Shown here in pieces: positions 1-16,819 of a DNA stretch of 39,448 nucleotides. The DNA is from a virus (lineage: Duplodnaviria; Heunggongvirae; Uroviricota; Caudoviricetes), in the IMG/VR virus record IMGVR_UViG_2585427754_000011; one strand, 5' to 3'. Under the pieces are notes generated by a model that saw nothing but the letters and a program-made list of their open reading frames with translations, was not told the DNA's origin and did not search any database. Position numbers and translations under genes: made by a program. Every line of letters begins with the position of its first letter. Position 1 is the stretch's first letter.

Positions 1-1053
1 TTACGGGGTAATGCCAACCGCTGCCGCCACTTTGTCGCCACTTGGCAGCGTTGCCAGAGGATTGAAACGGAGCGCCGTTTCCAGATGATCCGGTGCCAGA
101 TGTGCGTAACGCATAGTCATTTTTATATCGTGGTGTCCGAGAATTTTTTGTAAGGCCAGAATGTTTCCACCCGACATCATGAAGTGCGCCGCAAACGTAT
201 GGCGCAGAACGTGTGTGAGTTGACCGCGAGGGAGCACGATAGACGTTTTTTCCATCACGGATAAAAATTGAAAATAGCAGTCTGTGAAGAAATTGAACCC
301 ATCAAGCGCCATGATCTCTTCGTAAAGCTCTTTACTGATAGGGATGCTTCTGTTTTTCTTCCCCTTCGTTCTTACAAAGGTAATTCGGTATTTGGTCACC
401 TGTGAGCGGGTAAGATTTACGGCTTCTCGCCAGCGTGCGCCTGTGCTTAAGCATATCTTAACTACCAGTGCCAGAATTGGGTCCTGACGTTTGCAATCAG
501 CCAGTAATTCAACAATCTGCTCATGGGTAAGCCATGCCATCTCTTTTTCTGCGATGGTGAATTTTCGCATGTTCTCCAGTGGGTTCGGATACGACCATTC
601 GCCCAGGCGGGATAGTTCGCTAAAAACACTACTTAGATAGCTTTGCTCCAGGTTAATGGTGACCGGGCTTGCTCCTTTCTTCCATTTCTCGCTGAAGTAG
701 ATCTCACCTGTCAGGCGTTTATCTCGATAGTGGGCAAACATTTTAGAGGTTAGATCAGTTGCAAGGGGATTGCCCAGAGCGTCAACCATCAGCAGCAATT
801 TGTCATAGACATGCTGCCCAGCAGTCAGAGATTTACCATGTAGTTTGAACCATAGCTCAACCACGTCTTTCAGTGTTCGACGATCCACTGATTCACCCAG
901 CCAGGGCTTTGCTTCGGTTTCTTCCATCGTGTGACGCTCAAAAGCCAGTGCTTCGCCTTTGGTGGCGAATTGTTTACGCACACGACGCCCACTACGTCCG
1001 GCGGGGTAACATTCGCAAAGCCATTTTCCTGTGGTGAGTTTTCGTACAGCCAT
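1..1053 (-). CDS. int: Tyrosine integrase, P2/186 family
   Basis: Translation from the internal ATG (MAVRKLTTGKW...) resembles P2 Int N-terminus (MAIKKL...) and carries the tyrosine recombinase C-terminal region (HVLRHTFAAHFMM...GHHDIKMTMRYAHL). The longer ORF start at 1131 would abut the upstream gene. Stop codon is at 1-3. Confidence 0.9.
   Translation of the reverse strand: MAVRKLTTGKWLCECYPAGRSGRRVRKQFATKGEALAFERHTMEETEAKPWLGESVDRRTLKDVVELWFKLHGKSLTAGQHVYDKLLLMVDALGNPLATDLTSKMFAHYRDKRLTGEIYFSEKWKKGASPVTINLEQSYLSSVFSELSRLGEWSYPNPLENMRKFTIAEKEMAWLTHEQIVELLADCKRQDPILALVVKICLSTGARWREAVNLTRSQVTKYRITFVRTKGKKNRSIPISKELYEEIMALDGFNFFTDCYFQFLSVMEKTSIVLPRGQLTHVLRHTFAAHFMMSGGNILALQKILGHHDIKMTMRYAHLAPDHLETALRFNPLATLPSGDKVAAAVGITP
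19..40. repeat. Putative attL core (22-bp direct repeat shared with 36594-36615)
   Basis: cgctgccgccaCtttgtcgcca at 19-40 versus cgctgccgccaTtttgtcgcca at 36594-36615; flanking sequence diverges on both sides. The core overlaps the int 3' end. Confidence 0.55.
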
Positions 1054-1054
1054 A

Positions 1055-1077
1055 AAAAATGCCCTCCAGTGGAGAGC
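1055..1077 (-). terminator. Hairpin plus T-run between the KAP NTPase gene and int
   Basis: Minus strand reads GCTCTCC-ACT-GGAGGGC followed by ATTTTTT immediately before the int ATG; the stem contains GGAGG, which could double as the int Shine-Dalgarno. Confidence 0.4.
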
Positions 1078-1132
1078 ATTTTTACTGTATATATAACCAG
1101 TGTCAATGTATGAATTTGTATAGCCATACATA

Positions 1133-2464
1133 TCACTGAAGTAAAAAAACTTTTAAAGCATCTTTCACAATATTTGTTGGTTCACCAATACCGCCACCAC
1201 CTTTTAAAAAATGGTATTCACTCATTTCTGCCCATTGTCTTTTTATATTTTCCTCAGCAGGTAAAAGAGATGAGTTTTCAGATAAGTATTTGTAAACTAT
1301 TCCAAATATAGCATATTCATAATTATCTACATTATATTCACTTGTTTGATATGAAAATTTAGATAAACCAAACAATTTCATGATTGATTGAGCATCAACT
1401 TTATCTTCAAGAAAGTTGAGAGCTAACTCTCGGTTAAAAGTGTAGATTATTATCGCTAGAGTCCTGTAATAACAATATCCATAAATATATTTGTTGCTAA
1501 TTTTGTCGCCTGATAGTAGTTGGTATATTTCAACATATCTAGCAAGTGTTTCAACCTCACGTAATGATAATTTTCTACTTTCAATGAACTGTAAGAAAAT
1601 ATCTTCGCTGGCTTCTACTGCAGCGGTCAGCCTTTCAGATTGCTCACATAGCATCATCCAATGATTTTTGGAAGTTAAAGTGTCATTATAATTATCTTCC
1701 TTAAAGGTAACAGGAAGGCTGTATGTAAATTTTATAAATTTGTCAAGATAACGGTTGGAGTCTACAGAAGAGCCATAGATATGATTTATGGATGCTTTTA
1801 GTTGAGTTGTGTTTGCAATTAATAAAAAGTTAATGTTTTTTATATCAAAAACATGTTTTATATTTTCAATAATAGAAATGGCAAAACTAGGCTTACATCT
1901 GTCTAACTCATCTATAATTATTGTTAGTTTACTTTCTCCAGCTAATTTGGTTAGTACTTCTTTTAGAGCAAGAACGTTCTTTTGTGCCTCGATATGATCT
2001 TCTAACAGAGCCTCGATGGTTCCATCGATAGCTGAATTTGCAGCGTCTTTGATAACCTCTTCAAATTCCTCATTAATTTCATCCGCATTTTGTTTTAATA
2101 CCCAACCAGCACCAGCTTTGAGTACAGTCTTAAGTCCGAATCTGAGGGCTGGCAATGCCTTAGATATTAATTCCTTTTTTTCATCGCTATTATATAGAGC
2201 TGCAATTGCGGCCATTATTGTAAGTATGGGAGCATCGTTGTGATCTTCAGTAAAAGCATCTATATAAACTACTTTATGATTGGTCGAGTTTATTTCAATT
2301 AAGGATGCTAACTTTTTTGAAAACTCTGTTTTTCCAGTCCCCCAGTCCCCATCTATGACCATAGGTGAAACAGGAATATTAGACTCTAGCAAACTTATTA
2401 TTTTTTCTGCAATGGCTTTTCTTTTATATTCATCACGTATATCGAAAGTTATATCTGTGCTCAT
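1133..2464 (-). CDS. KAP-family P-loop NTPase (443 aa)
   Basis: Walker A GDWGTGKT and the KAP-type Walker B IIIDELDRC are both present. ATG start confirmed; AT-rich relative to flanking phage genes. Sits 13 nt downstream of the small ORF stop. Confidence 0.8.
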   Translation of the reverse strand: MSTDITFDIRDEYKRKAIAEKIISLLESNIPVSPMVIDGDWGTGKTEFSKKLASLIEINSTNHKVVYIDAFTEDHNDAPILTIMAAIAALYNSDEKKELISKALPALRFGLKTVLKAGAGWVLKQNADEINEEFEEVIKDAANSAIDGTIEALLEDHIEAQKNVLALKEVLTKLAGESKLTIIIDELDRCKPSFAISIIENIKHVFDIKNINFLLIANTTQLKASINHIYGSSVDSNRYLDKFIKFTYSLPVTFKEDNYNDTLTSKNHWMMLCEQSERLTAAVEASEDIFLQFIESRKLSLREVETLARYVEIYQLLSGDKISNKYIYGYCYYRTLAIIIYTFNRELALNFLEDKVDAQSIMKLFGLSKFSYQTSEYNVDNYEYAIFGIVYKYLSENSSLLPAEENIKRQWAEMSEYHFLKGGGGIGEPTNIVKDALKVFLLQ

Positions 2465-2675: not shown

Positions 2676-3245
2676 TTATCTAACATACTTAACTGTTAAG
2701 CTTATAATTTTTCCAATTATTTCAACATCTTCTATCTTGCACTCGAAGGCTCTGTTTCCACCTTCAACGAAAATTCTTCCACCGGGTAAACGAGTGATGT
2801 CGCGGATTGTTATTTCGCCATCAATACTTATTACCCATTTACCATCACGTATATCATCAAATTCTTTATCACAAATAAATTCAGAATTGTTATCTGTGAT
2901 GACAAAAGGTTTTTTAAACGTAGAGGGTAGAAATCCCTTATCAAAAATATAAAAACCGTCTTCCTGCAATGCTCCATCAGACAATAAATATTTTACTACT
3001 TCTATAGTATTTGTATTTGCTGATGCTTGCTTTGAACCATGCCCTGTTGTTAGCCAATTAAGCGAGGTACCCGTTTCAAGGGCGCACTGGATTACCCAAT
3101 CTGCCGGAAAAATATCACGCATATAACGCGTTGCCATGGTGCTCTTAGAAACACCTAAATGATCACAGAGAGCCTGACGGGTACCGAACCCGTATGCTTC
3201 AACCAAACGTTCTATGGCTTTCTTACCGCCGCTATTGAAATCCAC
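2676..3245 (-). CDS. cI: CI-like immunity repressor (phage 186 CI type)
   Basis: Resembles 186 CI as I remember it (EAYGF...HCALETG...LNWLTTGHG) with an HTH-like segment. The ORF-track start at 3332 is a GTG and would overrun the promoter region; I place the start at an internal GTG at 3245 preceded by GGAGG. Confidence 0.75.
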   Translation of the reverse strand: MDFNSGGKKAIERLVEAYGFGTRQALCDHLGVSKSTMATRYMRDIFPADWVIQCALETGTSLNWLTTGHGSKQASANTNTIEVVKYLLSDGALQEDGFYIFDKGFLPSTFKKPFVITDNNSEFICDKEFDDIRDGKWVISIDGEITIRDITRLPGGRIFVEGGNRAFECKIEDVEIIGKIISLTVKYVR

Positions 3246-3272
3246 AAATCCTCCAAAGAAATCCAAAATTCG

Positions 3273-3301
3273 TTGACAGATTCCAAAAGCGATCTTAAAG
3301 T
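3273..3301 (+). promoter_or_regulatory. Candidate pR-like early promoter
   Basis: TTGACA at 3273-3278, 17-bp spacer, TAAAGT at 3296-3301, upstream of apl; sits in the cI/apl switch region. Confidence 0.35.
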
Positions 3302-3390
3302 TGAACCAGAAGTCTTCTTTTGGAGCCTTCACTACTAATCACGACAAACAACGGCTCGCCAAAAGCCATATCTAGAAGGAATGTTGCCTT

Positions 3391-3594: not shown

Positions 3595-3658
3595 TAGACG
3601 TCTATTTTCGCAATAAGACGCTGAGTTCGATTTTGCGATAAGTTCGGAATTGAAAACC

Positions 3659-4168
3659 ATGTTTGATTACCAAGTTTCCAAACATCCACATTTTGATGAA
3701 GCCTGTCGTGCATTCGCACTGCGCCACAACCTGGTGCAGCTGGCAGGACGTGCAGGAATGAATGTGCAGATTCTGCGAAACAAGTTGAACCCTGCTCAAC
3801 CTCATTTATTAACCGCACCAGAAATTTGGCTGCTTACCGATCTGACTGAAGATTCGACGCTGGTAGATGGCTTTCTGGCTCAGATTCACTGTCTGCCATG
3901 TGTACCGATTAATGAGGTAGCAAAAGAGAAACTGCCACATTACGTCATGAGTGCAACCGCAGAGATCGGACGTGTTGCTGCAGGTGCGGTATCTGGCGAT
4001 GTAAAAACCAGTGCAGGTCGTCGTGATGCTATCAGCAGCATTAACTCTGTAACACGACTGATGGCGCTGGCTGCTGTTTCATTGCAGGCCCGTTTACAGG
4101 CTAATCCTGCGATGGCGAGTGCAGTTGATACCGTGACTGGCCTCGGTGCTTCATTCGGTTTGCTGTGA
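3659..4168 (+). CDS. cII: CII-like lysogeny establishment regulator (phage 186 CII type)
   Basis: [19 protein letters not shown]...[26 protein letters not shown] closely matches my recollection of 186 CII; start taken at the ATG at 3659. Confidence 0.85.
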
Positions 4169-4175: not shown

Positions 4176-4409
4176 ATGCTGACGAAAGAACCATCATTTG
4201 CATCGCTGCTGGTAAAACAAAGTCCGGCAATGCACTACGGTCACGGCTGGATTTATTTACCTTGTGGGAAAAAGTGGCATCCAAGTTTTGAATTACAACC
4301 CCGGCAACAGGCTTACCGGGGAAGAAATAAAAAGCGATTCCTACAAAGATTTATGGTTAACGTGGCAAACAACCTGCGAACCAAGCGAAAAGTTTTTCTT
4401 GGAAGCTGA
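4176..4409 (+). CDS. Hypothetical early protein; its N-terminal coding segment is duplicated at 4996-5055
   Basis: ORF MLTKEPSFASLLVKQSPAMHYGHGW... overlaps the start of the duplicated 60-bp segment; the 3' part overlaps the antisense gene and may be non-functional. Confidence 0.3.
   Translation: MLTKEPSFASLLVKQSPAMHYGHGWIYLPCGKKWHPSFELQPRQQAYRGRNKKRFLQRFMVNVANNLRTKRKVFLGS
4193..4253. repeat. Direct repeat copy 1 (~60 bp, 2 mismatches against 4996-5055)
   Basis: atcatttgcatcgctgctggtaaaacaaagtccggcaatgcactacggtcacggctggat; weaker similarity continues ~35 bp further. Confidence 0.85.
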
Positions 4410-4815
4410 GGTTTACATCGTCAACCCGACCACAGGCAATAGCAGCTCTTTTGTAGGCAGGGTTTAACAAAGATCCGAATGTTGTGGAGTCAGAGTGATG
4501 CAAAGCTTTCAATTTTTGTGCAATGAACTGTGGAGACAATTCATCCTCGGCGTAAAGCAACTCACCATATTGTCGGCTTTGTACGCTTGCTCGTTCCGCA
4601 ATAATAGCTGGTTGCCATACAAGTTGGATTGTTGCGATTACAACAACAGGAAAAGCGAACAACCATTCCAGACCTGTATTAGCAAATACAGCTGTTCCGC
4701 TTATAAGTTGGATTGCTGTCATTAATTTATCAGCTCGACCATGGAACGTTGCTGTCATTAGTTCAAGGTAATAACAGTAGTGTAATTGGAAGTATTCGGA
4801 GCTTTGTTTAGTCAT
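4357..4815 (-). CDS. Predicted 2-TM membrane protein (152 aa), antisense to the early operon
   Basis: ATG start with AGGAA upstream; two hydrophobic stretches (LMTAIQLISGTAVFANTGL, WLFAFPVVVIATIQLVW) followed by a soluble C-terminal part. Hairpin ccccgg...ccgggg at ~4292-4316 lies downstream. Confidence 0.55.
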   Translation of the reverse strand: MTKQSSEYFQLHYCYYLELMTATFHGRADKLMTAIQLISGTAVFANTGLEWLFAFPVVVIATIQLVWQPAIIAERASVQSRQYGELLYAEDELSPQFIAQKLKALHHSDSTTFGSLLNPAYKRAAIACGRVDDVNLSFQEKLFAWFAGCLPR

Positions 4816-4905: not shown

Positions 4906-4995
4906 CAGTTTTCTCCTTTGAGGGGTAGATGATTGTTAGCACAAATAGTCTACCACTGAGGCACGCGCCGGGCGTGTAGAAAAATTCCCGGCACA

Positions 4996-5055
4996 ATCAT
5001 TTGCATCGCTGCTGGTAAAGCAAAGCCCGGCAATGCACTACGGTCACGGCTGGAT
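4996..5055. repeat. Direct repeat copy 2
   Basis: atcatttgcatcgctgctggtaaagcaaagcccggcaatgcactacggtcacggctggat. Confidence 0.85.
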
Positions 5056-5275
5056 CATGGGTGAGGATGGAAAACGCTGGCATCCATGTCATTCACAAGA
5101 TGAATTGCTGTCTGAATTGACCACGAGGAAACGGAGAAAGTCAAAATGTATGCAGCGGAAAGTGAAGTGGTTTATCAGTTTCGTTACAGAGGGGAGAGTT
5201 ATTCAGTACCTGAAGATGATTTGCTCTGTTGTTATCCGTCGTTGTCGGGCGATGGCAGTTACTTTTTCACGCTAA
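5033..5275 (+). CDS. Hypothetical early protein, paralogous start to 4176-4409
   Basis: MHYGHGWIMGEDGKRWHP... versus MHYGHGWIYLPCGKKWHP... in the first copy; overlaps the next ORF in another frame. Confidence 0.3.
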   Translation: MHYGHGWIMGEDGKRWHPCHSQDELLSELTTRKRRKSKCMQRKVKWFISFVTEGRVIQYLKMICSVVIRRCRAMAVTFSR

Positions 5276-5370
5276 AAGATGGGACGTTTTTACGGGGAGA
5301 GCAGGTTAAAGAGACGATACGAAAAAATGTATCTCCTCTTGAACGTTACCGTAATAACAAACAACGATAG
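5146..5370 (+). CDS. Hypothetical early protein (74 aa)
   Basis: ATG with AGGAAACGGAGAAAG upstream. Confidence 0.4.
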   Translation: MYAAESEVVYQFRYRGESYSVPEDDLLCCYPSLSGDGSYFFTLKDGTFLRGEQVKETIRKNVSPLERYRNNKQR

Positions 5371-5392
5371 TTGCGTTTTGGGGATATGAATT

Positions 5393-5734
5393 ATGGCAAT
5401 TAATGGCGCTGCGGCGACTGTTCCATTAAGCCCCGGTGAACGCCTGAATGGACTTAATCACATTGCGGAGCTAAGGGCGAAAGTTTTTGGCCTGAATATT
5501 GAGTCAGAGCTTGAGCGGTTTATTAAAGATATGCGTGATCCACGGGATATCAATAATGAACAAAATAAACGGGCACTGGCTGCCATATTCTTTATGGCAA
5601 AAATTCCAGCTGAACGTCATAGCATCAGCATTAATGAGCTGACCACTGACGAAAAGCGGGAGCTGATTAAAGCAATGAATCATTTTCGTGCAGTGGTGAG
5701 CTTATTTCCCAGACGGCTAACCATGCCCAATTAA
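5393..5734 (+). CDS. Hypothetical early protein (113 aa)
   Basis: ORF in the early operon, co-oriented with neighbours. Confidence 0.5.
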   Translation: MAINGAAATVPLSPGERLNGLNHIAELRAKVFGLNIESELERFIKDMRDPRDINNEQNKRALAAIFFMAKIPAERHSISINELTTDEKRELIKAMNHFRAVVSLFPRRLTMPN

Positions 5735-5801
5735 CCAACTAATGAAATTAATGGCGTAAACCCGCCGGGCATCCCTTTATCTAAATTCAGGAGAATTGAT
5801 T

Positions 5802-6035
5802 ATGCGTAATATTGAAACCCTCACGACTAAAACCGGACCGGATGACGCAGGGCTTAATATTTTACTGACAGAGGCTCGTCTGGAAGAACGCCGGGCAAGG
5901 GCTGAAGCAATGGCAGCTCGCCTTGATAGCCTGGCGTGTCATATCTCATCCCGTCAGCTAAACCACGTGGAAGCGGCAGAACTGCTGCGTGTGACTGCTG
6001 AAGCAATCCAGAACGAAGCGCAGGAGATCCACTAA
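5802..6035 (+). CDS. Hypothetical early protein (77 aa)
   Basis: ATG at 5802 with AGGAG 9 nt upstream; stop overlaps the next start (TAATG). Confidence 0.5.
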   Translation: MRNIETLTTKTGPDDAGLNILLTEARLEERRARAEAMAARLDSLACHISSRQLNHVEAAELLRVTAEAIQNEAQEIH

Positions 6036-6262
6036 TGGCTGATGCAATGGATCTCGTACAGCAGCGCGTTGAAGAAGAACGCCAGCGCCATATCCGTGCT
6101 GCCCGTGCCAAAACGCCGGGCGTGTCCCGCGTGCTTTGCGTTGAGTGTGAAGCGCCAATTCCGCCAGCACGCCGCCGTGCCATTCCGGGTGTGCAGCTTT
6201 GCATTACCTGTCAGGAAATCGCAGAGCTGAAAGGCAAACATTACAACGGAGGTGCTGTATGA
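6035..6262 (+). CDS. TraR/DksA-type C4 zinc-finger protein
   Basis: CVEC...CITC four-cysteine pattern in a 75-aa protein; stop overlaps the dam start (ATGA). Confidence 0.7.
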   Translation: MADAMDLVQQRVEEERQRHIRAARAKTPGVSRVLCVECEAPIPPARRRAIPGVQLCITCQEIAELKGKHYNGGAV

Positions 6263-7116
6263 GCACCATCCTGAAATGGGCGGGAAATAAAACCGCAATT
6301 ATGTCCGAACTGAAAAAACACCTTCCTGCTGGCCCGCGACTGGTTGAACCTTTCGCGGGTTCCTGTGCTGTGATGATGGAGACGGATTATCCCAGCTATC
6401 TGGTTGCGGATATTAATCCTGATTTAATCAACCTCTATAAAAAGGTTGCCGCTGATTGTGAATCATTTATATCTCGCGCCAGAGTTTTATTTAAGGAAGC
6501 AAACAGGGAGGTGGCTTATTACAACATAAGGCAGGAGTTTAATTACTCAACTGAAATTACTGATTTCATGAAAGCGGTATATTTCCTGTATCTCAATCGT
6601 CACGGTTACCGTGGTTTATGTCGCTATAACAAGAGCGGGCATTTCAACATTCCCTACGGTAATTATAAAAATCCGTATTTCCCTGAAAAAGAAATTCGCG
6701 CATTTGCAGAAAAAGCCCAGCGGGCAACGTTTATCTGCGCCAGCTTTGATGAAACGCTGGCGATGTTGAAGGCGGGGGATGTGGTGTATTGCGATCCGCC
6801 GTATGACGGCACGTTTTCCGGTTATCACACTGACGGCTTCACTGAAGATGACCAGTATCACCTGGCATCCGTTCTTGAACATCGGTCATCAGAAGGACAT
6901 CCGGTCATTGTTTCTAACAGTGACACATCCCTGATCCGTTCGCTGTATCGCAATTTTACTCACCACTACATCAAGGCAAAACGCAGCATCGGCGTAGCAG
7001 CTGGTGAGAGTAAATCTGCAACAGAAATCATCGCTGTTTCTGGGGCGTGCTGCTGGGTGGGATTTGATCCTTCGCGTGGCGTGGATAGTTCAGCCGTGTA
7101 CGGAGTGCGTGCATGA
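6259..7116 (+). CDS. dam: DNA adenine methyltransferase (Dam-like)
   Basis: ILKWAGNK N-terminus, FAGS, and DPPY catalytic motif. ATG at 6259 with GGAGGTG upstream. Confidence 0.85.
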
Positions 7117-9527
7117 GCCATGCTGATATGAACAACTGCAGCGGCTTTAACGAGGCCGCCGCAGCATTCTCATGGAACAGCCCGAAAAAGGCTATTAACC
7201 CTTATCTGGACCCGGCGGAAGTTGCGCCGGTTTCTGCGCTTTCAAACCTGATCACTCTGTACGCTGCCGATAACGAGCAGGAACAACTGCGCCGCGAGGC
7301 ACTGAGTGATCAGGTCTGGGAGCGTTATTTCTTTAATGAATCCCGTGATCCTGTCCAGCGCGAAATGGAGCAGGATAAGCTCATTAGCCGGGCAAAGTTG
7401 GCGCATGAGCAGCAGCGTTTTAACCCGGACATGGTCATTCTGGCAGACGTCAGCGTCCAGCCCTCCCATATCAGCAAGCCGCTGATGCAACGTATTGAAT
7501 ACTTCAGCAGCTTGGGCAGGCCAAAGGCTTATTCCCGCTATTTACGTGAGACGATTAAGCCATGTCTGGAACGACTGGAGCATGTACGCGACAGCCAGCT
7601 ATCTGCATCTTTTCGTTTTATGGCAAGCCATGTAGGGCTGGACGGCCTGCTGATTCTGCCTGAAATGAGTCAGGATCAGGTGAAACGCCTGTCTACCCTT
7701 GTCGCTGCGCATATGAGCATGTGCCTTGATGCAGCTTGTGGTGATTTGTATGCCACCGATGACGTTAAGCCGGAAGAAATCCGCAAGACATGGGAAAAGG
7801 TGGCAGCGGAAACCCTGCGTCTGGATGTCATCCCGCCTGCGTTTGAGCAACTCCGTCGGAAAAGAAACCGCCGTAAACCCGTGCCCTATGAACTCATTCC
7901 GGGTTCGCTGGCGCGTATGTTGTGCGCCGACTGGTGGTACCGGAAATTATGGAAAATGCGTTGCGAATGGCGGGAAGAGCAGTTGCGTGCTGTCTGCTTG
8001 GTCAGCAAAAAAGCATCTCCCTATGTCAGCTATGAAGCCGTGATGCATAAACGTGAGCAGCGCCGCAAGTCACTGGAGTTTTTCCGTTCTCATGAACTGG
8101 TGAACGAAGAGGGCGACACGCTGGATATGGAAGACGTGGTAAACGCCAGCAGCAGCAACCCGGCGCACCGCCGCAATGAGATGATGGCCTGTGTTAAAGG
8201 TCTGGAGCTTATCGCGGAAATGCGCGGTGACTGCGCCGTTTTCTACACCATTACCTGTCCGTCACGTTTCCATTCCACGCTCAATAACGGCAGACCAAAC
8301 CCAACCTGGACAAATGCGACGGTAAGACAAAGCAGCGATTATCTGGTCGGCATGTTTGCTGCATTTCGTAAGGCGATGCACAAAGCCGGGTTGCGCTGGT
8401 ATGGCGTGCGGGTGGCTGAGCCGCATCATGACGGTACAGTTCACTGGCACCTGTTGTGTTTCATGCGCAAAAAAGACCGCCGCGCCATTACTGCATTGTT
8501 GCGTAAGTTTGCCATCCGTGAAGACCGCGAGGAACTGGGTAATAACACTGGTCCACGCTTTAAATCTGAGCTGATAAACCCGCGCAAAGGAACGCCGACA
8601 AGCTACATCGCGAAATACATCAGTAAGAACATTGACGGGCGTGGTCTGGCTGGCGAGATCAGCAAGGAAACGGGTAAATCCCTGCGTGATAACGCTGAAT
8701 ACGTTAATGCCTGGGCGTCTCTGCATCGTGTTCAGCAATTCCGCTTCTTTGGCATTCCGGGGCGTCAGGCTTACCGTGAACTGCGATTGCTGGCTGGTCA
8801 GGCGGCAAGGCAACAGGGGGACAAAAAAGCAGGTGCGCCGGTACTGGATAACCCGCGCCTTGATGCCATCCTGGCTGCTGCTGATGCTGGTTGTTTTGCC
8901 ACCTACATCATGAAGCAGGGCGGCGTACTAGTTCCCCGCAAATATCACCTCATCAGAACCGCTTATGAAATCAACGAAGAGCCGACCGCCTATGGCGATC
9001 ACGGCATTCGTATTTATGGCATCTGGTCACCCATTGCAGAGGGCAAGATCTGCACTCATGCAGTGAAGTGGAAAATGGTTCGTAAAGCCGTTGACGTTCA
9101 GGAGGCGGCAGCCGACCAGGGCGCTTGCGCCCCTTGGACTCGTGGCAATAACTGTCCCCTTGCTGAAAATTTGTACCAACAAGGGAAAGACAAATCAGCT
9201 GATGGAGATACCAGAACGGATATCACCCGCATGGATGACAAGGAGTTGCACGATTACCTGCACAGTATGAGCAAAAAAGAGCGCCGGGAACTGGCTGCAA
9301 GGTTACGCCTGGTGAAACCGAAACGGCGTAAAGACTACAAACAGCGAATTACAGACCATCAGCGACAGCAGCTCGTCTATGAACTGGAGTCCAGAGGATT
9401 TAATGGCAGCGAGAAAGAGGTCGATTTACTCCTTCGCGGCGGCAGTATTCCGTCAGGAGCAGGCCTGCGTATCTTCTATCGGAACCAGCGTTTGCAGGAA
9501 GATGATAAGTGGCGGAACCTGTATTAA
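7113..9527 (+). CDS. A: Replication initiation protein A (rolling-circle HUH endonuclease, P2 gpA type)
   Basis: 804 aa with HUH-like TVHWHLL and a YIAKYISKN tyrosine motif; start overlaps the dam stop (ATGA). Confidence 0.9.
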
Positions 9528-9680: not shown

Positions 9681-9869
9681 ATGCAGGACTATTTTTTGGA
9701 GTCTTTGAAGCTCCAGCGCATTGATTTTTTTCTTAAGCTTGTAGCGGCTAGTGAGTGTAGTGATGAAGAGAAGGGGCTGGCTCTGCAGTGGGTTTCTGAA
9801 TTGACTGATGAACTCATGGCAAAAATCAGAAGCCACGAATACAACCGCTCAATGGATGTCATCAGCTGA
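9681..9869 (+). CDS. Putative Tum-like antirepressor (62 aa)
   Basis: First ORF after the LexA box, strong AGGAGG RBS; position matches 186 tum. No sequence-level confirmation. Confidence 0.4.
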   Translation: MQDYFLESLKLQRIDFFLKLVAASECSDEEKGLALQWVSELTDELMAKIRSHEYNRSMDVIS

Positions 9870-9879
9870 GGTGACTTTT

Positions 9880-10113
9880 ATGCGCATTGAAATAATGATC
9901 GATAAAGAGCAGAAGATTAGCCAGTCTACCCTGGACGCCCTTGAATCCGAGCTTTACCGCAATCTGCGCCCCCTGTATCCCAAAACGGTAATTCGTATCC
10001 GCAAAGGTAGCTCTAACGGTGTGGAACTTACCGGATTGCAACTGGACGAAGAAAGAAAACAAGTGATGAAAATTATGCAGAAGGTGTGGGAAGACGACAG
10101 CTGGCTGCATTAA
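9880..10113 (+). CDS. DinI-like protein
   Basis: MRIEIMIDKEQK...WEDDSWL resembles E. coli DinI (MRIEVTIAK...WESADDWF) as recalled; GAGGTGA RBS. Confidence 0.7.
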   Translation: MRIEIMIDKEQKISQSTLDALESELYRNLRPLYPKTVIRIRKGSSNGVELTGLQLDEERKQVMKIMQKVWEDDSWLH

Positions 10114-10432: not shown

Positions 10433-11383
10433 TTAAACTATACCAGCGAAAGAGGTGCTTTTTGCTGGGGCTATGGCATATGAGAATGTTATTTCATTAC
10501 GATCATCGGCATCGCGACTACGATAAAGACTACTTTCAAGTTTAACGGCCAAATAATAACCATTAATATTTTGAATAACTGCAATATCGCCAACTTCAAG
10601 CGATTCTGTATCTTCACTCTTGAAGAATGCTTCAGAATTGGCATCTGTGATTTGATTGAAATCGGTAATGCCTTTAGCAAATACTAAGGAATGGAGACTT
10701 GGCTGACGCTTGTAAATGTAGGCTTGATTACGTCCCCCAACTCCCCACTTTGTCTCAAAAAGCATTTCACCTGAGCCAACCCAATAAGAGTCATAATTTC
10801 CATTTGGCACAAATGTAACTTTGCCTGTGCTTGTGGGGGATTGGTTAGCCCCATCTGGTTGAGATAAATTGACAGGGTTGATCGGAGGCGGTTTTCGGTT
10901 AAATGGGCTAGGTCCAGCCGCTGGGCGTGGTTTCATTTTCTCACCGTGCAAATCATGGATCAGCTCTACATAACTATTCTCATAATCCACAGCATCGAAA
11001 GAAAGCCGAAGGCGCGCACCTACGAAGGTTGGAACTGGCTCAGATAATGAGTTATTAACAATTACAGGGATAACGCGATTACTATTCAATTCTCGCATTA
11101 TCTGACTGGAAATGATCATTTTCTCATAACCTACCCCCCCTGATTTTTGCATATTGGCTTTAGCTACATATGGTTCTGTACAAATGACAAGCACTCGGTC
11201 AGCGCTTGTAAGCCCTTGCTCCATGAAAAGAGTAAGATCACTTCCCAATGTAATATCCCATTGGTCTAAGATTACGTGAACTCCATTTTGTTCAAGCCGG
11301 GTCGCAAGCTTTAACACCCATGCTTTATGCTCTTCACTATCATGAGAATAAGAAATAAAAAGTTTAGGTTTAGTTAGTTCCAT
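10433..11383 (-). CDS. TIR-domain protein with unknown C-terminal domain (316 aa)
   Basis: N-terminus KLFISYSHDSEEHKAW...VLVICTEPY is TIR-like, including a candidate catalytic Glu; ~180-aa C-terminal region without recognisable motifs. ATG start; AT-rich. Confidence 0.75.
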   Translation of the reverse strand: MELTKPKLFISYSHDSEEHKAWVLKLATRLEQNGVHVILDQWDITLGSDLTLFMEQGLTSADRVLVICTEPYVAKANMQKSGGVGYEKMIISSQIMRELNSNRVIPVIVNNSLSEPVPTFVGARLRLSFDAVDYENSYVELIHDLHGEKMKPRPAAGPSPFNRKPPPINPVNLSQPDGANQSPTSTGKVTFVPNGNYDSYWVGSGEMLFETKWGVGGRNQAYIYKRQPSLHSLVFAKGITDFNQITDANSEAFFKSEDTESLEVGDIAVIQNINGYYLAVKLESSLYRSRDADDRNEITFSYAIAPAKSTSFAGIV

Positions 11384-11836: not shown

Positions 11837-11944
11837 CGCGCGCTGTATGCCTGAAGTGGCTAAAATAGTATCTGTCATAGGTACAACTTAGTGTAGTATC
11901 ATCCATATAATCCATTGAAATATAATCGACTCTCATTAGAGGTG

Positions 11945-12943
11945 ATGATGAACGGAATCTGGTACGAAAACACTCATACACGCATTCCTAATTTTGAAAC
12001 AACAGTACATCAAAAGCACAAATTCGGTTACGCTTATGAAACAACAAGTCATTTTGTGCATCTGTATGGGCGTGACATGGGATTTAATGTAATATCAGTT
12101 GGGTTAACTGTTATTGAGCAACGAAGTGGAACTCTCAATGATTGGGTTCGGAGAGTATTTGGGGCTCAGAACATATCTCCTTTAGATAATGAAATTGGAC
12201 ATGTAACTAGGGGAGTGTGGCGGCCATCCTTATATTATGTCAATGATACAGAAACAGCATTAGGTATCGATGAGTTTGAAAAAAGAGCAACAGAGCAAGC
12301 TCTAAGAGTTTTGATAGAAAAACTCGATGATATTTTTCTATATGTAGAACCAAGTGCCCATGGTTTGATTTCTTACAGTCATAAATGTAGAGAGCTATTA
12401 ATTCTTGCTTGTACTGAGGTTGAAAATCAATGGGTGTCAATCATTGGTAATTCGAATTTATCTCGTTCAAATGGTCGATACTCCACAAATGATTATGTGA
12501 AATTATTAGATAAGTGTTATTTGTCTGAATATAAAATTCAATATTTGAATTATGACGGATTAAGGCATTTCAAACCTTTTGATGGGTGGAATGCAAGTAC
12601 CCCTACAACATCTTTGTCATGGTATAATGCATATAATAAAACTAAACATGATAGATCAGGAGCATTCCACTTTTCCACTTTAGAAAATGTAATGGATGCA
12701 GTTGCTGCTTGTGTTGTAATGTACTGTGTAAAATATGGCCCGTTTAGCTTATTGGAAGCCAATACGTCTCTATCAACGATCGTTAATCAAAACTTTTCAA
12801 TTTCATTAGATAATAGCAATCCAGCAAGTTATTACATTCCTGAAATTGAACTTCCACCGGATACAAGAACGGATTTATTAATTTATGATTGTTATCGAGA
12901 AAACCATAATAAAGCATGGGTCACTGATCCCCTAGTGCTCTAA
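11945..12943 (+). CDS. Hypothetical protein (~332 aa), possibly HEPN/Abi-like
   Basis: ORF-track start at 11915 is TTG; ATG at 11945 follows GAGG. A single Rx4H-like motif (RSGAFH) is the only hint of a HEPN fold. AT-rich. Confidence 0.5.
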   Translation: MMNGIWYENTHTRIPNFETTVHQKHKFGYAYETTSHFVHLYGRDMGFNVISVGLTVIEQRSGTLNDWVRRVFGAQNISPLDNEIGHVTRGVWRPSLYYVNDTETALGIDEFEKRATEQALRVLIEKLDDIFLYVEPSAHGLISYSHKCRELLILACTEVENQWVSIIGNSNLSRSNGRYSTNDYVKLLDKCYLSEYKIQYLNYDGLRHFKPFDGWNASTPTTSLSWYNAYNKTKHDRSGAFHFSTLENVMDAVAACVVMYCVKYGPFSLLEANTSLSTIVNQNFSISLDNSNPASYYIPEIELPPDTRTDLLIYDCYRENHNKAWVTDPLVL

Positions 12944-12999: not shown

Positions 13000-13626
13000 T
13001 TATATATCAATAGAGTTTTGAAATTTTAATAACTGCCATCTTGTTAATAGTGGTTTTATTGCTATGTTGTGTTGTGTATTTATTTTTAAACCTTCGAATT
13101 TCGAATATCCATTTTCCAAGGCTTCCACTGAAAAATGAATGGTTTTTGTTATCGGGTTTATAGCACAAAGATTTAGGTCATATAAAGTATGAATGTCACT
13201 TCTGAGCAATAATCCATTGCTAATATGATTGTGACTATCGTTTCGATATACATTAATGTGAGCAGCATCAAGAATATCAACAAGCTTACAGCCCGTAACC
13301 GCACAAGTAGGATTTGATTTTAATAGCTGGTCGCGAAATGTTTTTTGCCCACTTCGTTGTTTTATTTGCCGTTCTACAATTTGCCGTTGATCTTCACCCA
13401 TTAAAGTGGGGGTGTCTTTATCAGCTTCGCTGGCGTTGAGCTCCAGAATAATAGTATGTTGGGCGGTAAGCAAAGCAACAGCCCATTGATAGTTAACTTC
13501 TTGGATGGACATTTGCCCATTGTAGCGTGGAGTTTCATCTATAAGTTGTGACATTGTAATATTGGATAATTTACGGTACTGGTTGCCGCAGTATGCTATA
13601 AATTCTTTAGCTGGCTCAAAAACCAC
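13000..13626 (-). CDS. HNH endonuclease-domain protein (HNH_2-like)
   Basis: DAAHI...NGLLLRSDIHTLYD matches the HNH motif pattern. Annotated start is GTG; true start uncertain. Confidence 0.65.
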   Translation of the reverse strand: MVFEPAKEFIAYCGNQYRKLSNITMSQLIDETPRYNGQMSIQEVNYQWAVALLTAQHTIILELNASEADKDTPTLMGEDQRQIVERQIKQRSGQKTFRDQLLKSNPTCAVTGCKLVDILDAAHINVYRNDSHNHISNGLLLRSDIHTLYDLNLCAINPITKTIHFSVEALENGYSKFEGLKINTQHNIAIKPLLTRWQLLKFQNSIDI

Positions 13627-14024: not shown

Positions 14025-15056
14025 TCATCCCAAAGAATATGGCTCAAATCGCAAAATTTTTTGTTCTAACCAGTCATTTACTTCACGCATCCTTTTTTGC
14101 AACGGTAATAATTCATTTCGCACAAACACATTTGCCGCCTTCTCCACATCCCCAAACCCCCCAACATTGCTAGGCATTATCCCCATCATTTGTGGTGGCA
14201 CACGATGCGCTGCCATCATGTCATCCCGACTCACGTTCTTGATGTTAAGAAATTCATCCTTCGCTGCGACTTCTGATAGCGGGATAATCTGAAGCCCGTC
14301 CTTTTTGCCGTTAGGCGAGTACATAAACAGGTTACGAAAGTTACCAGGACCTTTGGCACTTTTCATCGCGTTGCGGAGGTTGTTCACATCCTCCTGGTTC
14401 TGCGCGGCGTCGGTCATGTACATGATGAAGCCTGCATGGCTGCCGTTAATGTAATACTTCCGGCGGAACAGCGTGGCGGACTCGTTGAGCAGGGCGGATG
14501 GAATGGCAGAAAGGTAACCTGGCAGACCATAAATCTCCTGGTTGATATCCGGCTCCATCAGGTGGAAGACGTTACCTTTTGTGAACTGATACGGCTGTGT
14601 CGTCAGGCTGTATTGCACAAACCAGTAGGTATCCAGGTCTAATCCGCGTCGGGTGTATTTTGCCAGAGCTGGCTCAAGGGCGATAACTTCACCGAAGCGG
14701 TTCGTGCGTTTCTCCAGGTAGGCGTTACCAAATACCAGATAGTCCTGCACAAAACGTGAAAAAGCCTGCTGGCTGAGCAGCGGGTGAGGGATGTAGGTAC
14801 TGGTCAGAATGTTGCACTTTACTGCAATCGGGGAACTGTGATGCACAGCAGCGCGGAAGGTGCGCGCCAGTCCGTCAAAGCTGACGGGAGGCTCATACCA
14901 GCGATCTGTCTGTACGCATTCCACATAGTCCAGCAGTTCGCGGCGGTCAAGTACTGGAATGGGATCACCGAAGCTGAATGCTTCGGCTGTAGTCTGGCTT
15001 TTATGCTGGATCTGGTTCGTCGACGCAGCGCGGTTCTTCTTACTCTTTCCCATCAA
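14025..15056 (-). CDS. Q: Portal protein (P2 gpQ type)
   Basis: 343 aa, same size and position as P2 Q; overlaps the start of the terminase ATPase gene. Confidence 0.85.
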   Translation of the reverse strand: MMGKSKKNRAASTNQIQHKSQTTAEAFSFGDPIPVLDRRELLDYVECVQTDRWYEPPVSFDGLARTFRAAVHHSSPIAVKCNILTSTYIPHPLLSQQAFSRFVQDYLVFGNAYLEKRTNRFGEVIALEPALAKYTRRGLDLDTYWFVQYSLTTQPYQFTKGNVFHLMEPDINQEIYGLPGYLSAIPSALLNESATLFRRKYYINGSHAGFIMYMTDAAQNQEDVNNLRNAMKSAKGPGNFRNLFMYSPNGKKDGLQIIPLSEVAAKDEFLNIKNVSRDDMMAAHRVPPQMMGIMPSNVGGFGDVEKAANVFVRNELLPLQKRMREVNDWLEQKILRFEPYSLG

Positions 15057-16819
15057 AAAAACTCCACAATATTGCTGGTATTGGCGGATTCGCCCTGCAG
15101 CGGTTCGTTAAACAGTGCGTGCATCGTTGCCCAGGCCAGATCGGCGTGGCTGGCTTCTTCGCTGCGGCTGGCTTCATAGGTCGGGCGGTTGCCACTGGCG
15201 GTGGTGGCGCGACGGATTGCCATAAATGACTGGGCTATGTCGGTGTGTCCGGCGTCAAACTCCAGACGGCGGTGGCTGATAATGTCGTAGGCCTTGAGTA
15301 CCAGAGCGTTTTTAACGTTGGGGTTGTAGACAAACTCCCGGACGGCAGGAAAGAACGCTTTCACGTTCTCATAAACCCCGTGACCGACGCCTGTCGAGTC
15401 GATGCCGATATAGGTCACGTTGTACTGCTCGGTCAGTTTTTTGATTGCATCAGCCTGGGCGCGGAAGTCCATCCCGCGCCACTGGTGACGCTCAAGAATG
15501 CGAAACTTACCGCCTGGCACGGCTGGCGGTGCCACCACCACGCACCCGGCGCTGTCGCCGTTCTGCGTACCTTTTGCCGGGTCATAACCGATCCACACTT
15601 CGCGCCAGCCAAATGGGCGCAGCGCCAGTGCATGAAAGTCGGTCCAGACTTCCCAGCTGTCCACCATGCACGCCTGCAGCTCGCTGAGCGGGAACACGGA
15701 CGCGAGATCGTCCACGAACTCACACATCAGCAGGTTCTGGTATTCGTCCGGGCTGTACTCCATGCGTAACTGGTCGAGGTCGAACAGGTTACAGCCGCCG
15801 CGCACCGCATCTTCCACGGTGACTATCTGGCGGTATTGCCCGTCTGCGCACAGCAGGCCGGGGGCCAGATTGCTGTGGGACAGGTCGATGTCCACCTTAT
15901 CGGCTTTGTTGCGCCCACGGTTGAACAGCGCACCGGACCAGAGCGGATAAGCACTGTGTGTCAGGCTGGATGGCGTGGAAAAATAGGTTTGTCGCCATTT
16001 TTTGTGAATAGCCATACCGGAAGCCACTTTGCGCAGCTCCTGGAATTTCGGTATCCAGAAATATTCATCCAGATACAGGTTGCCGTGGTAACTCTGGGCC
16101 GTGCGGGCATTGGTGCCGAGGAAGTAAAGCGTGGCCCCGTTAGGAAGCACCATCGGATCGCCTTTCAGCTCCACCTCCACTTCTTTGGCAAAGTCGATGA
16201 TGTACTGTTTAAAGACGTGGGCCTGAGCCTTGCTGGCAGAAAGGAAAATCTGGTTACGCCCGGTCAGCAGGGCGTCAATCAGGGCTTCACGGGCAAAGTA
16301 AAAGGTCGCGCCGATCTGGCGAGACTTCAGCAGGTTGCGGATGCGATTGGTTTTTCCGGCTTCCCACCAGTGGCGCTGGTAGTTGAACATGGAGGAATGG
16401 AAGATTTCTTCCAGTTTCTCAATCTGTTCATCGGTGAAAACATTCTTTTCCGGCTGACGGCGCGGGCCCTTGTTGCGGTTGGCGACGTTAGGGTTTAAGT
16501 CAGCTTCGTTGCCGCCATTGTTAAACTTGCCGATCCGCGCGTGGCGCTCCGACTGGCGCGCCAGCAGGTCAATTTCTTTGAAATCTTTCCCTTCTTTATG
16601 CTCCTTCATGATGAGCTGGCAGTAGCGTGCGGCGGTGGTGAGCTGCATCTGATCCAGCGGCCCATAGTCACCCCACTTGTCGCGTTTTTTCCAGCTGTGA
16701 ACGGTTGCAACTTTCTCGCCCAGCATTTCAGCAATGCGGGCTACGCGGTATCCCTGAAAGTACAGCAGCATGGCCTGCCGACGGGGATCGAGATCTGCGG
16801 GTGTCAGTGTGGTGTTCAT
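15053..16819 (-). CDS. P: Terminase large subunit / ATPase (P2 gpP type)
   Basis: 588 aa, divergent from the capsid operon as in P2. Confidence 0.9.
   Translation of the reverse strand: MNTTLTPADLDPRRQAMLLYFQGYRVARIAEMLGEKVATVHSWKKRDKWGDYGPLDQMQLTTAARYCQLIMKEHKEGKDFKEIDLLARQSERHARIGKFNNGGNEADLNPNVANRNKGPRRQPEKNVFTDEQIEKLEEIFHSSMFNYQRHWWEAGKTNRIRNLLKSRQIGATFYFAREALIDALLTGRNQIFLSASKAQAHVFKQYIIDFAKEVEVELKGDPMVLPNGATLYFLGTNARTAQSYHGNLYLDEYFWIPKFQELRKVASGMAIHKKWRQTYFSTPSSLTHSAYPLWSGALFNRGRNKADKVDIDLSHSNLAPGLLCADGQYRQIVTVEDAVRGGCNLFDLDQLRMEYSPDEYQNLLMCEFVDDLASVFPLSELQACMVDSWEVWTDFHALALRPFGWREVWIGYDPAKGTQNGDSAGCVVVAPPAVPGGKFRILERHQWRGMDFRAQADAIKKLTEQYNVTYIGIDSTGVGHGVYENVKAFFPAVREFVYNPNVKNALVLKAYDIISHRRLEFDAGHTDIAQSFMAIRRATTASGNRPTYEASRSEEASHADLAWATMHALFNEPLQGESANTSNIVEFF

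Follow-up and report, generated by a model that had tools for sequence, protein, structure and literature searches.

A predicted orphan Dam methyltransferase in the early lytic operon of a Felsduovirus-like prophage and the retention of GATC sites among P2-like phages

The window examined in the present study, a 39,448-nt stretch of DNA, carries on its plus strand a dam-like gene (6259..7116) predicted to encode an orphan D12-class (Dam family) N6-adenine DNA methyltransferase of 285 amino acids. We consider it probable that this is an active, GATC-specific Dam of a Felsduovirus-like prophage, produced early in the lytic cycle, which fully methylates the phage DNA and thereby frees the lineage to keep its GATC sites. 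The proposal draws on protein family, motifs, recognition residues, gene overlaps, purifying selection, operon position and a contrast in GATC density between phages with and without the gene; from these we infer enzymatic activity, GATC specificity, timing of expression, translational coupling and the identity of the selective agent. Phage dam is itself a long-known and ordinary gene, routinely annotated as 'DNA adenine methylase', and as a gene it changes nothing.

The ORF runs from an ATG at 6259 to a TGA at 7114-7116, boundaries that are annotated alike in RefSeq for identical or sibling prophages. Its product matches Pfam PF02086 over profile positions 1-253 of 253 (E=2.4e-77, 260.5 bits against a cutoff of 22), NCBIfam TIGR00571 'dam' with 324.4 bits (cutoff 114.85), and the E. 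coli Dam structures at E=6e-74 (PDB 2g1p). These matches, together with a DPPY motif, bear out the preliminary description of a Dam-type adenine methyltransferase, and assignment to the Dam family, D12 class, lies far beyond chance. The cutoff of the chromosomal-Dam equivalog NF008152 was missed (290.9 bits vs 441), and the enzyme is assigned to a paralogous phage lineage, not to the orthologues of host dam. Purifying selection is evident across codons 1-260 in 26 diverged homologues, with a dN/dS of about 0.08-0.14. Domain matches give a gene order of CI / (apl) - cII - fil - DUF2732 - TraR-like - variable slot - gene A, followed by DinI/tum, cargo and portal-terminase, which is co-linear with the 186, Fels-2 and RE2010 records, and positions 5300-7600 share 95-97% nucleotide identity with Felsduovirus-type phages. 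On this sequence evidence the window is classed as a Felsduovirus-like (P2/186-type, Peduoviridae) prophage with dam in its early lytic operon.

Observed/expected ratios for GATC were computed from the base composition of complete genomes. Among phages with a D12 Dam the ratio was 0.78 in the window prophage, 0.87 in RE2010, 0.90 in Fels-2, 1.12 in Kp4846-1, 1.24 in Kp4860-2 and 1.52 in SEN4, whereas without a D12 Dam it was 0.12 in 186, 0.19 in P2, 0.31 in YenM_06.16-2, 0.38 in Kp4887-2, 0.40 in 535AP1, 0.58 in P88_4B11, 0.71 in ESSI2 and 0.75 in 919TP; the two groups separate completely at genus level (Mann-Whitney p=0.004, not phylogenetically corrected). Of the 16 palindromic 4-mers, none is depleted more strongly than GATC in P2, 186, YenM_06.16-2 and Kp4887-2, and GATC ranks 3rd to 16th in the Dam-carrying genomes. 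The same contrast appears within orthologous gene A, which holds 7-17 GATC sites in Dam-carrying and 1-3 in Dam-less phages, and in IMG/VR loci around gene A, where Dam-carrying loci have a median of 3.6 GATC/kb (n=66) compared with 0.9 for P2-type (n=77) and 1.3 for 186-type loci (n=76). Listing the GATC positions in 186 and P2 revealed no convincing clustering. Because GATC is near-normal in Dam carriers and lower in Dam-less phages, the contrast suggests that GATC is the target of the phage enzyme and that host Dam does not make it superfluous. The preliminary description had raised the prospect of an enzyme both identical in specificity to host Dam and redundant with it; the first part stands as a prediction, and the second is at odds with the GATC densities.

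Shared ancestry could account for part of this clade-level contrast. Within the Felsduovirus-like clade, five loci without dam and one with a frameshifted copy still have 2.6-3.8 GATC/kb, and recent loss or mosaic exchange is needed at these loci for the explanation to hold. Two Dam-less genera, ESSI2 and 919TP, are only mildly depleted, and may carry a GATC methylase outside the D12 class.

In the mechanism that we favour, dam would be transcribed only once the early lytic operon under CI control is switched on, and its translation would be linked to that of the TraR-like protein and gpA, placing the enzyme in the cell as phage replication begins. Host Dam would be scarce and outpaced by phage replication, so that it would fall to the phage enzyme to complete methylation of the phage genome, with its roughly 110 GATC sites, before packaging. 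The cost of un- or hemi-methylated GATC, namely cutting by MutH and by restriction enzymes that cleave unmethylated GATC, would thus be removed and a lineage with dam could keep a normal GATC content, its Dam-less relatives having purged theirs. It has been reported that GATC is counter-selected in enterobacteriophages, that phage yield falls in a MutH-dependent manner and that host Dam leaves phage DNA under-methylated (PMC5014478, citing McClelland 1984 and Deschavanne & Radman 1991). The wider proposition, that a phage-borne Dam releases a whole P2-like lineage from GATC avoidance and that host Dam is then insufficient for these phages, is one on which we are nearly evenly divided, leaning slightly towards doubt.

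An account in which the main benefit is anti-restriction or host range shares the same molecular mechanism and differs only in the selective agent: methylated GATC would shield incoming DNA from DpnII/MboI-type systems in the next host, with escape from MutH secondary. Protection against restriction by phage-borne orphan methylases is well documented (e.g. PMC4190342). Other restriction sites are strongly avoided in the other P2-like genomes examined, including CCGG (0.02) and GGCC (0.13) in HP1 and CATG (0.04) and GCGC (0.06) in a Mannheimia phage, and restriction therefore does shape genomes of this type. Against this, all hosts of the present clade are Enterobacterales, which have their own Dam, and DNA leaving them is already largely methylated. 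Furthermore, depletion in the Dam-less relatives is specific to GATC among 4-mers, which fits the published Dam/MutH explanation (PMC5014478). We therefore regard restriction as a possible but rather unlikely principal agent, and retain relief from GATC counter-selection, with MutH included, as the preferred reading.

The specificity on which this reading depends is predicted from the catalytic and DNA-binding regions. Catalytic motif IV, DPPY (6793..6804, +; aa 179-182), aligns with D181-Y184 of E. coli Dam (EcoDam) and is kept in 101-102 of 103 homologues, while the SAM-binding motif I region EPFAGS (6346..6363, +; aa 30-35), aligned by phmmer with EPFVGAGS of EcoDam, is without variation across 39 homologues. 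A DNA-recognition hairpin occupies 6607..6666 (+; aa 117-136), in which Y117, R118, L120, R122, P132 and Y136 align with EcoDam Y119, N120, L122, R124, P134 and Y138. In the EcoDam-DNA structure, GATC is read by K9, Y119, N120, L122, R124, P134 and Y138 (PMC4417163), and six of these seven residues are identical in the phage enzyme (K9, Y119, L122, R124, P134 and Y138 in EcoDam numbering). The exception is N120, a residue that contacts a base through a hydrogen bond in the cognate complex and for which 103/103 clade members have Arg; EcoDam R137 is replaced by Asn or His. With six of seven recognition residues kept and ~45-50% identity to E. coli Dam, GATC specificity is predicted; both activity and specificity are homology-based predictions.

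The D12 class includes enzymes with other specificities, and an enzyme recognising a different sequence would add a new mark instead of reinforcing that of the host. The clade-wide Arg at the base-contacting position N120 and the sub-threshold NF008152 score (291 vs 441 bits) are in keeping with such a departure. It is nevertheless very improbable in view of the 45-50% identity to EcoDam across the catalytic and DNA-binding region, where R124, L122, P134, Y119, K9 and Y138 are all kept, and because, among the tetramers, it is GATC whose density goes with the presence of dam. In addition, the homologue from the retron-Ec67 prophage was published with 'Dam methylase function', going by the title of Hsu et al. 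1990 (PMC7826664).

The phage enzymes end in a C-terminal tail (7039..7113, +; aa 261-285) that is absent from EcoDam and has a W-x-G-x-D...G-x-D pattern, with W266, G268, D270, G274, D276 and V283 conserved. An AlphaFold2 model built from a 39-sequence alignment was of moderate quality (mean pLDDT 73), with residues 264-285 below 50, and the tail is accordingly predicted to be disordered. Several divergent tail alleles exist, all of which keep the W-x-G-x-D...G-x-D motif; the ORFs preceding gene A in the 186, P2, SEN4, Yersinia, Mannheimia, HP1 and EC958 phages lack it at their C-termini, and the tail is thus specific to this Dam clade. The conserved disordered tail might hold the methylase close to gpA or to the replisome. 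Tail alleles and the N-terminus of gpA switch together, but the two segments lie next to each other and linkage explains this co-switching equally well.

The gene lies between a TraR/DksA-like C4 zinc-finger gene (6035..6262, +; PF01258 E=4.4e-11, TIGR02419 67 bits) and replication gene A, encoding the rolling-circle initiator / nickase (7113..9527, +; PF05840 Phage_GPA E=2.1e-127), whose product is 88% identical to Fels-2 gpA. Both junctions are ATGA overlaps, as the preliminary description had it: the TraR-like stop overlaps the dam start at 6259..6262 (+; ctgtATGAgc) and the dam stop overlaps the gene A start at 7113..7116 (+; gtgcATGAgc). A Shine-Dalgarno sequence was read for dam within the end of the TraR-like ORF (GGAGG, 6248..6252, +; 7 nt 5' of the ATG) and another for gene A within the end of dam (GGAG, 7102..7105, +; 8 nt 5' of the ATG). 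The dam/A overlap is found at most clade loci (1, 7, 13, 17 or 28 nt before the dam stop; a few loci are unscorable). The phage 186 record states that translation of A depends on translating the upstream ORF, orf84, to its end. By analogy, dam and A may be translationally coupled, given the overlap and internal Shine-Dalgarno sequence here and a dependence documented only for orf84-A of 186.

A consensus scan of positions 3200-9800 returned a single promoter-like site on the plus strand, a sigma-70-like, pR-like match (TTGACA-17-TAAAGT, 3273..3301, +; consensus match only) that overlaps the start of the gene for a CI-type immunity repressor (2676..3332, -; PF07022, PF16452). Its position corresponds to pR of phage 186, the record of which documents repression of pR by CI. 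By analogy, CI is expected to silence the early operon, dam included, in the lysogen.

This arrangement bears on the suggestion, made in the preliminary description and a generic one for prophage methylases, that the enzyme is expressed in the lysogen and alters Dam-dependent regulation or phase variation in the host. Such lysogenic conversion is very unlikely here: dam sits in the middle of an early lytic operon downstream of a CI/pR-like switch, is overlapped on both sides and has no plus-strand promoter-like site of its own, the operon is CI-repressed in the 186 model, and GATC is already methylated by the host. The morons of this prophage are, moreover, located elsewhere and on the opposite strand.

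Could the ORF owe its retention mainly to a role as translational coupler or spacer, bringing ribosomes to gene A, with its enzymatic activity dispensable? The corresponding slot in 186 is occupied by the unrelated, non-essential orf84, which must be translated to its end for A to be translated, and in some clade members TraR is followed directly by A or the slot holds an ASCH-like ORF. Strong purifying selection over the whole catalytic body (dN/dS about 0.1) and near-invariant catalytic and DNA-recognition motifs nonetheless make this account highly improbable, and it would leave the GATC contrast unexplained.

With a DksA/TraR zinc finger (PF01258) and a Phage_GPA protein (PF05840) as the flanking gene products, no restriction enzyme adjoins the methylase, in agreement with the preliminary description. 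Its orphan status is further indicated by the lack of a restriction endonuclease gene in the dam cluster, by the occurrence of the same dam with differing cargo genes, and by PADLOC, for which the best model is orphan-MTase ('oMTase', E=6.6e-112). An HNH_2 ORF 6 kb downstream (13000..13626), weakly similar to the PADLOC 'HNH / Type II restriction enzyme' model, was considered as the nuclease half of a Type II restriction-modification system and rejected as exceedingly improbable: it lies on the opposite strand in a variable cargo slot, none of the sibling prophages examined has it, dam genes that are identical or 96% identical occur with other cargo (PIN-domain genes, retron Ec67, AIPR), and a nuclease that cuts GATC would serve no purpose in a Dam+ host.

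If the preferred reading of an active phage Dam that offsets GATC counter-selection is correct, phages of Dam+ bacteria take one of two routes, either purging GATC, as P2 and 186 do, or retaining it and encoding a Dam of their own, and both solutions occur in one phage family. The dam gene would then exemplify a counter-measure to a host constraint, and Felsduovirus (Dam) and P2/186 (Dam-less) would form a natural, genetically tractable pair for studying whether MutH, restriction or SeqA underlies GATC counter-selection. In methylome studies, the gene is expected to go unexpressed in lysogens and to contribute no motif other than GATC.

The preliminary description regarded the methylase as a known feature of some P2-like phages, a view upheld by its occurrence in Fels-2 (STM2730), RE2010 (gp10) and the retron-Ec67 prophage; the same gene also occurs in about 23% of complete E. 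coli genomes. Both Felsduovirus homologues share with the window the slot (TraR-like, dam, gpA), the gene length and the overlap with gene A. Identity to the window enzyme is 98% for RE2010 and 74% for Fels-2, the latter having another tail allele and a 10-nt overlap with A, in contrast to 4 nt in the window. The Fels-2 record labels its homologue as similar to 'retron EC67 DNA adenine methylase'. The retron-Ec67 prophage carries the same gene and belongs to the same prophage family as the window, and is reportedly 186-related, as attributed to Dodd and Egan in 1996. Its Dam ORF was published in 1990 by Hsu, Inouye & Inouye, according to PMC7826664. In one complete E. coli genome, the cargo slot of a co-linear prophage holds a retron-Ec67-family RT; the first 5 kb of this prophage match the window at about 99.9% nucleotide identity, and its dam has the same coordinates, with 274/285 residues identical. 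The cargo slot itself differs, the window having a bSEFIR/TIR gene, an unknown ORF and the HNH ORF where the retron-Ec67 family has the retron.

The papers on DuoHS, the P2-like prophage of E. coli HS, contained nothing on a methylase. M.EcoMIV, the prophage 'Dam homolog' of ST131 strain EC958, has been reported as untranscribed (PMC4659465); we dropped a link to it as evidence for silence in lysogens, as the P2-like prophage located in EC958 lacks dam.

A second D12 Dam lineage of Peduoviridae, the SEN4_41 type, is found in SEN4, Kp4846-1 and Kp4860-2, in which GATC is likewise undepleted. These enzymes are nearer one another than to the window enzyme, to which they are only about 38-42% identical. 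In SEN4 the gene also lies in the block directly upstream of gene A, with a second, unrelated methylase alongside and a third downstream of A. The Dams of T4/T2, P1, VT-2 and HP1 are similarly orphan GATC adenine methylases from phages of Dam+ hosts. T4 Dam is a distant D12 relative (PDB 1yfj, E=2.6e-18), whereas the P2-like phage HP1 has an unrelated small methylase of 173 aa encoded downstream of rep, the gene in the window being upstream. E. coli Dam (PDB 2G1P and related) has the fold family, DPPY, SAM motif and GATC-recognition residues in common with the phage enzyme, at an identity of about 45% globally and about 50% over the aligned core; the phage enzyme is set apart by the replacement of N120 with Arg, by an additional conserved tail of 25 residues that is predicted to be disordered, and by being phage-borne and, as predicted, under lytic-operon control.

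The dam gene lies on the + strand, running from an ATG at 6259 to a TGA at 7114-7116, and encodes 285 aa with a DPPY motif at residues 179-182 (nt 6793-6804). Its start codon shares an ATGA with the stop of the 75-aa ORF before it (6035..6262), a TraR-like zinc finger, and its stop shares a second ATGA with the start codon of the next ORF (7113..9527; 804 aa), replication gene A; GGAGG is found 7 nt 5' of the dam ATG and GGAG 8 nt 5' of the gene A ATG. A mechanical ORF list gives a TTG at 6199, further upstream, as an alternative start; in the NCBIfam profile alignment ATG 6259 is the start matching position 1 of the family profile, and the boundaries in RefSeq are identical in identical and sibling prophages. 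The coordinates, DPPY motif and flanking ATGA overlaps reported in the preliminary description were all correct on reading the sequence, and domain matches of the neighbours confirm the placement between the TraR-like gene and gene A. The product matches Pfam PF02086 (D12-class N6-adenine methyltransferases) over the whole profile (E=2.4e-77) and the NCBIfam model TIGR00571 ('Dam family site-specific DNA-(adenine-N6)-methyltransferase') with 324 bits against a cutoff of 115. The threshold of NF008152, the chromosomal Dam equivalog, was not reached (291 bits vs 441), and these scores identify a phage paralogue rather than the chromosomal dam of the host. Its nearest solved structures are those of E. 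coli Dam (EcoDam; E=6e-74, residues 4-260 aligned), with which it shares 45% global identity, while DpnM and T4 Dam are more distant structural-database matches; the top PADLOC model is 'orphan methyltransferase' and the PHROGs label 'DNA methyltransferase'. The assignment to the Dam family is unambiguous, as had been proposed from the motif.

EcoDam-DNA structures assign recognition roles to seven residues: reading of the first base pair falls to K9 and Y138, of the third to L122 and P134, and of the guanine in the fourth to R124, while Y119 intercalates and N120 forms a hydrogen bond to a base (PMC4417163). In a phmmer alignment and an alignment of 103 full-length members of the Dam clade, six of these positions (K9, Y119, L122, R124, P134 and Y138) are kept, with V replacing L122 in 3/103 and S replacing P134 in 1/103 members. 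The seventh, N120, is Arg in 103/103, and the position of R137 is Asn or His. Because six of the seven positions are conserved, prediction by homology points to GATC, the specificity of host Dam, with N120R the sole reason for caution.

Avoidance of GATC by enterobacterial phages is an old observation, and a drop in phage yield in dam- mutH+ cells and under-methylation of phage DNA by host Dam have been reported as well (PMC5014478, citing McClelland 1984 and Deschavanne & Radman 1991). Dam carriers should tolerate GATC and Dam-less relatives avoid it if the phage enzyme methylates this site and host Dam falls short, and this pattern was found. In complete genomes, the observed/expected ratio of GATC (O/E, expectation from base composition) was 0.78 in the window prophage, 0.87 in RE2010, 0.90 in Fels-2, 1.12 in Kp4846-1, 1.24 in Kp4860-2 and 1.52 (over-represented) in SEN4, all with a D12 Dam. 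In genomes where Dam was not found it was 0.12 in 186, 0.19 in P2, 0.31 in YenM_06.16-2, 0.38 in Kp4887-2, 0.40 in Mannheimia 535AP1, 0.58 in P88_4B11, 0.59 in the EC958 P2-like prophage, 0.71 in ESSI2 and 0.75 in Vibrio 919TP; HP1, with an unrelated small Dam, stood at 0.62 and host flanks at 0.96-1.17. The two groups separated fully at genus level (Mann-Whitney p=0.004, uncorrected for phylogeny). Under a second-order Markov model, GATC was the most depleted of the 16 palindromic tetramers in P2, 186, YenM_06.16-2 and Kp4887-2 (0.13-0.35), whereas it ranked 3rd to 16th in Dam-carrying genomes. Orthologous gene A holds 1-3 GATC sites in Dam-less and 7-17 in Dam-carrying phages, with about 9 expected, and IMG/VR loci that span 8 kb or more around gene A have median densities of 3.6 GATC/kb with Dam (n=66), 0.9/kb in the P2 type (n=77) and 1.3/kb in the 186 type (n=76). 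As the Dam proteins of SEN4, Kp4846-1 and Kp4860-2 are only about 38-42% identical to that of the window, at least two Dam lineages show the pattern. Other 4-bp palindromes are depleted to an extreme degree in the whole genomes of HP1 (CCGG 0.02, GGCC 0.13) and 535AP1 (CATG 0.04, GCGC 0.06, CGCG 0.09, GGCC 0.12), presumably through avoidance of host restriction sites.

The GATC contrast is largely one between clades. Within the Felsduovirus-like clade, TraR is directly followed by A in four IMG/VR loci (L075, L080, L086 and L088), a fifth (L085) has a 157-aa ASCH-like ORF retaining the dam 3' end (…KSADEIIAVS…), and in a sixth (L040) dam is frameshifted; all six have host-like densities of 2.6-3.8 GATC/kb. 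The association is therefore not absolute, and these densities are compatible with recent loss of dam or mosaic exchange with Dam carriers. The methylase screen covered D12 Dam, the HP1-type enzyme and the SEN4 methylases, and the mildly depleted 'Dam-less' genomes may carry some other GATC methylase. The selective agent may be MutH, restriction at unmethylated GATC or SeqA. An enzyme with a specificity other than GATC is possible, given N120R throughout the clade, but is disfavoured by the conserved recognition residues and by a GATC density that follows Dam carriage. The preliminary description had counted a specificity identical to and redundant with host Dam as a refutation: the predicted specificity is almost certainly that of host Dam, but the density contrast argues against redundancy. 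Found in a single phage family, the contrast is a neat, if unsurprising, confirmation of a decades-old idea.

A second role suggested for the enzyme, lysogenic conversion through changed host methylation and hence perturbed Dam-dependent regulation, is unlikely because of the position of dam in the early operon. From the CI/early-operon switch (3273-3301) as far as gene A, a consensus scan found no sigma-70-like + strand site, and in phage 186 the pR promoter at the corresponding position is CI-repressed; dam is therefore expected to stay off in the lysogen and to be produced alongside the replication initiator once the prophage is induced or a cell infected. By placement it would be a lytic-cycle function rather than a lysogen modifier. 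The sole pR-like promoter match (3273-3301) has a GATC in its spacer (3291-3294), a few bases ahead of the -10 hexamer. P2 retains few GATCs, one of which (25899) lies within the O1 operator at the early promoter, and one in 186 (28610) is 34 nt away from the nick site annotated at the origin (28576). These positions may be coincidence.

According to the 186 record, translation of the last upstream ORF to its end 'appears necessary for translation of A protein', and a terminator early in A is active when A is untranslated. The dam/A overlap is present at most Dam-clade loci despite differing tail alleles (a few loci being unscorable), with gene A starting 1, 7, 13, 17 or 28 nt 5' of the dam stop, and from these two lines translational coupling of dam and A is a reasonable inference. 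A purely structural role for dam as a coupler for gene A is contradicted by strong purifying selection on the catalytic body (dN/dS 0.08-0.14 over 26 comparisons, amino-acid identity 69-92%); the enzyme is evidently in use. Residues 261-285 (7039-7113) form a tail without counterpart in EcoDam. It keeps the pattern W266-x-G268-x-D270...G274-x-D276...V283 across the clade, which includes several very divergent alleles. The AlphaFold2 model, built from a 39-sequence alignment, is moderate (mean pLDDT 73), with residues 264-285 below 50 (a tail predicted to be disordered) and low confidence in the DNA-recognition hairpin, as expected without DNA. The tail motif was not found at the C-termini of unrelated ORFs preceding gene A in other P2-like phages, and the tail is possibly a partner-binding peptide. 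Tail alleles switch together with the gpA N-terminus; since the segments adjoin, linkage is inseparable from co-evolution.

Domain profile, PADLOC and PHROGs matches combined with the ORF list show a P2/186-like prophage. It opens on the - strand with an integrase cut by the window end (1..1131), a KAP-family P-loop NTPase (1133..2464) with a near full-length match to the candidate defence family PDC-S20 of PADLOC (E=2.4e-171), and the CI repressor (2676..3332). The + strand early operon starts with CII (3650..4168) and continues through fil, DUF5347 and DUF2732 ORFs to the TraR-like gene, dam and gene A; a + strand DinI-like gene (9808..10113) follows. Within the operon lies a - strand 152-aa ORF (4357..4815; phrog_6315, unknown function) with a terminator-like hairpin (4321-4299); in a co-linear RefSeq prophage 'Fil family' ORFs (4176..4409 and 5033..5275) flank this ORF, which looks like an insertion into or beside fil. 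A mixed-strand cargo slot (about 10.4-13.6 kb; ORFs spanning 10433-13626) separates the DinI-like gene from the portal and holds three ORFs: a bacterial SEFIR/TIR protein (10433..11383, -; PADLOC bSEFIR, E=4.6e-70), a 342-aa ORF of unknown function (11915..12943, +; phrog_19461) and an HNH_2 ORF (13000..13626, -), which may be N-terminally truncated or mis-started, as its match to a 319-position PHROG profile is confined to positions 112-319. Portal and terminase genes (14025..16819, -) are followed by mostly + strand capsid, lysis and tail genes, ending with gpD at 36284, and a host transporter gene (36829..38514, -). On the opposite strand to the tail genes, a 598-aa AAA_15/AAA_21 ATPase (22773-24569, -) with GajA/AriA/PtuA-like matches occupies the position of P2 orf30, with tail-completion genes on one side and baseplate gene V on the other, so it is probably another defence moron. 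Membership of dam in a restriction-modification system is excluded for practical purposes: its neighbours are the TraR-like gene and gpA, so that no restriction enzyme adjoins it, as originally noted, and the sole nuclease-like ORF, HNH_2, lies on the other strand in the variable cargo slot and is replaced by unrelated genes in prophages sharing the same dam. In sibling prophages that slot holds retron Ec67, PIN-domain genes or an AIPR protein.

Phage records and IMG/VR loci show that the TraR-like/gene A interval is variable in Peduoviridae. It holds three non-essential ORFs in 186 (exonuclease-like, DUF5405 and PAPS-reductase-like), one in P2 (DUF5405) and two methylases in SEN4, and is empty or occupied by an ASCH-like ORF in some Felsduovirus-like contigs. 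The two SEN4 genes (region 26561-32049) encode different DNA methyltransferases and immediately precede gene A; a third methyltransferase gene lies beyond it, and the interval looks like a general methylase slot in the family. Over 5300-7600 the window shares 95-97% identity with many sequences, among them Klebsiella phage 4LV2017 and Salmonella phage RE2010, and the 858-bp dam gene was found in 1,239 of 5,426 complete E. coli genomes. Three NCBI E. coli proteins (P0008, P0009 and P0076; 456-496 aa) join a Dam domain, 95-98% identical to that of the window over 72-91% of the query, to PF05954, which we take to be the phage gene-D family; if so, they would stem from degraded prophages with a deletion that joined dam to tail gene D. 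One dam-positive E. coli genome has a co-linear prophage whose cargo slot holds a reverse transcriptase of the retron-Ec67 family; this prophage is about 99.9% identical to the window over the first 5 kb and carries dam at the same coordinates, with 274/285 residues identical. RE2010 gp10 is 98% and Fels-2 STM2730 74% identical to the window Dam, and in the Fels-2 record STM2730 is likened to 'retron EC67 DNA adenine methylase'. PMC7826664 cites Hsu et al. for the publication, in 1990, of the Dam ORF in the 34-kb Ec67 element. Given the Ec67-prophage match, the Fels-2 record and this publication, dam has long been known in the retron-Ec67/Fels-2 prophage family, in agreement with its description as a known feature of some P2-like phages.
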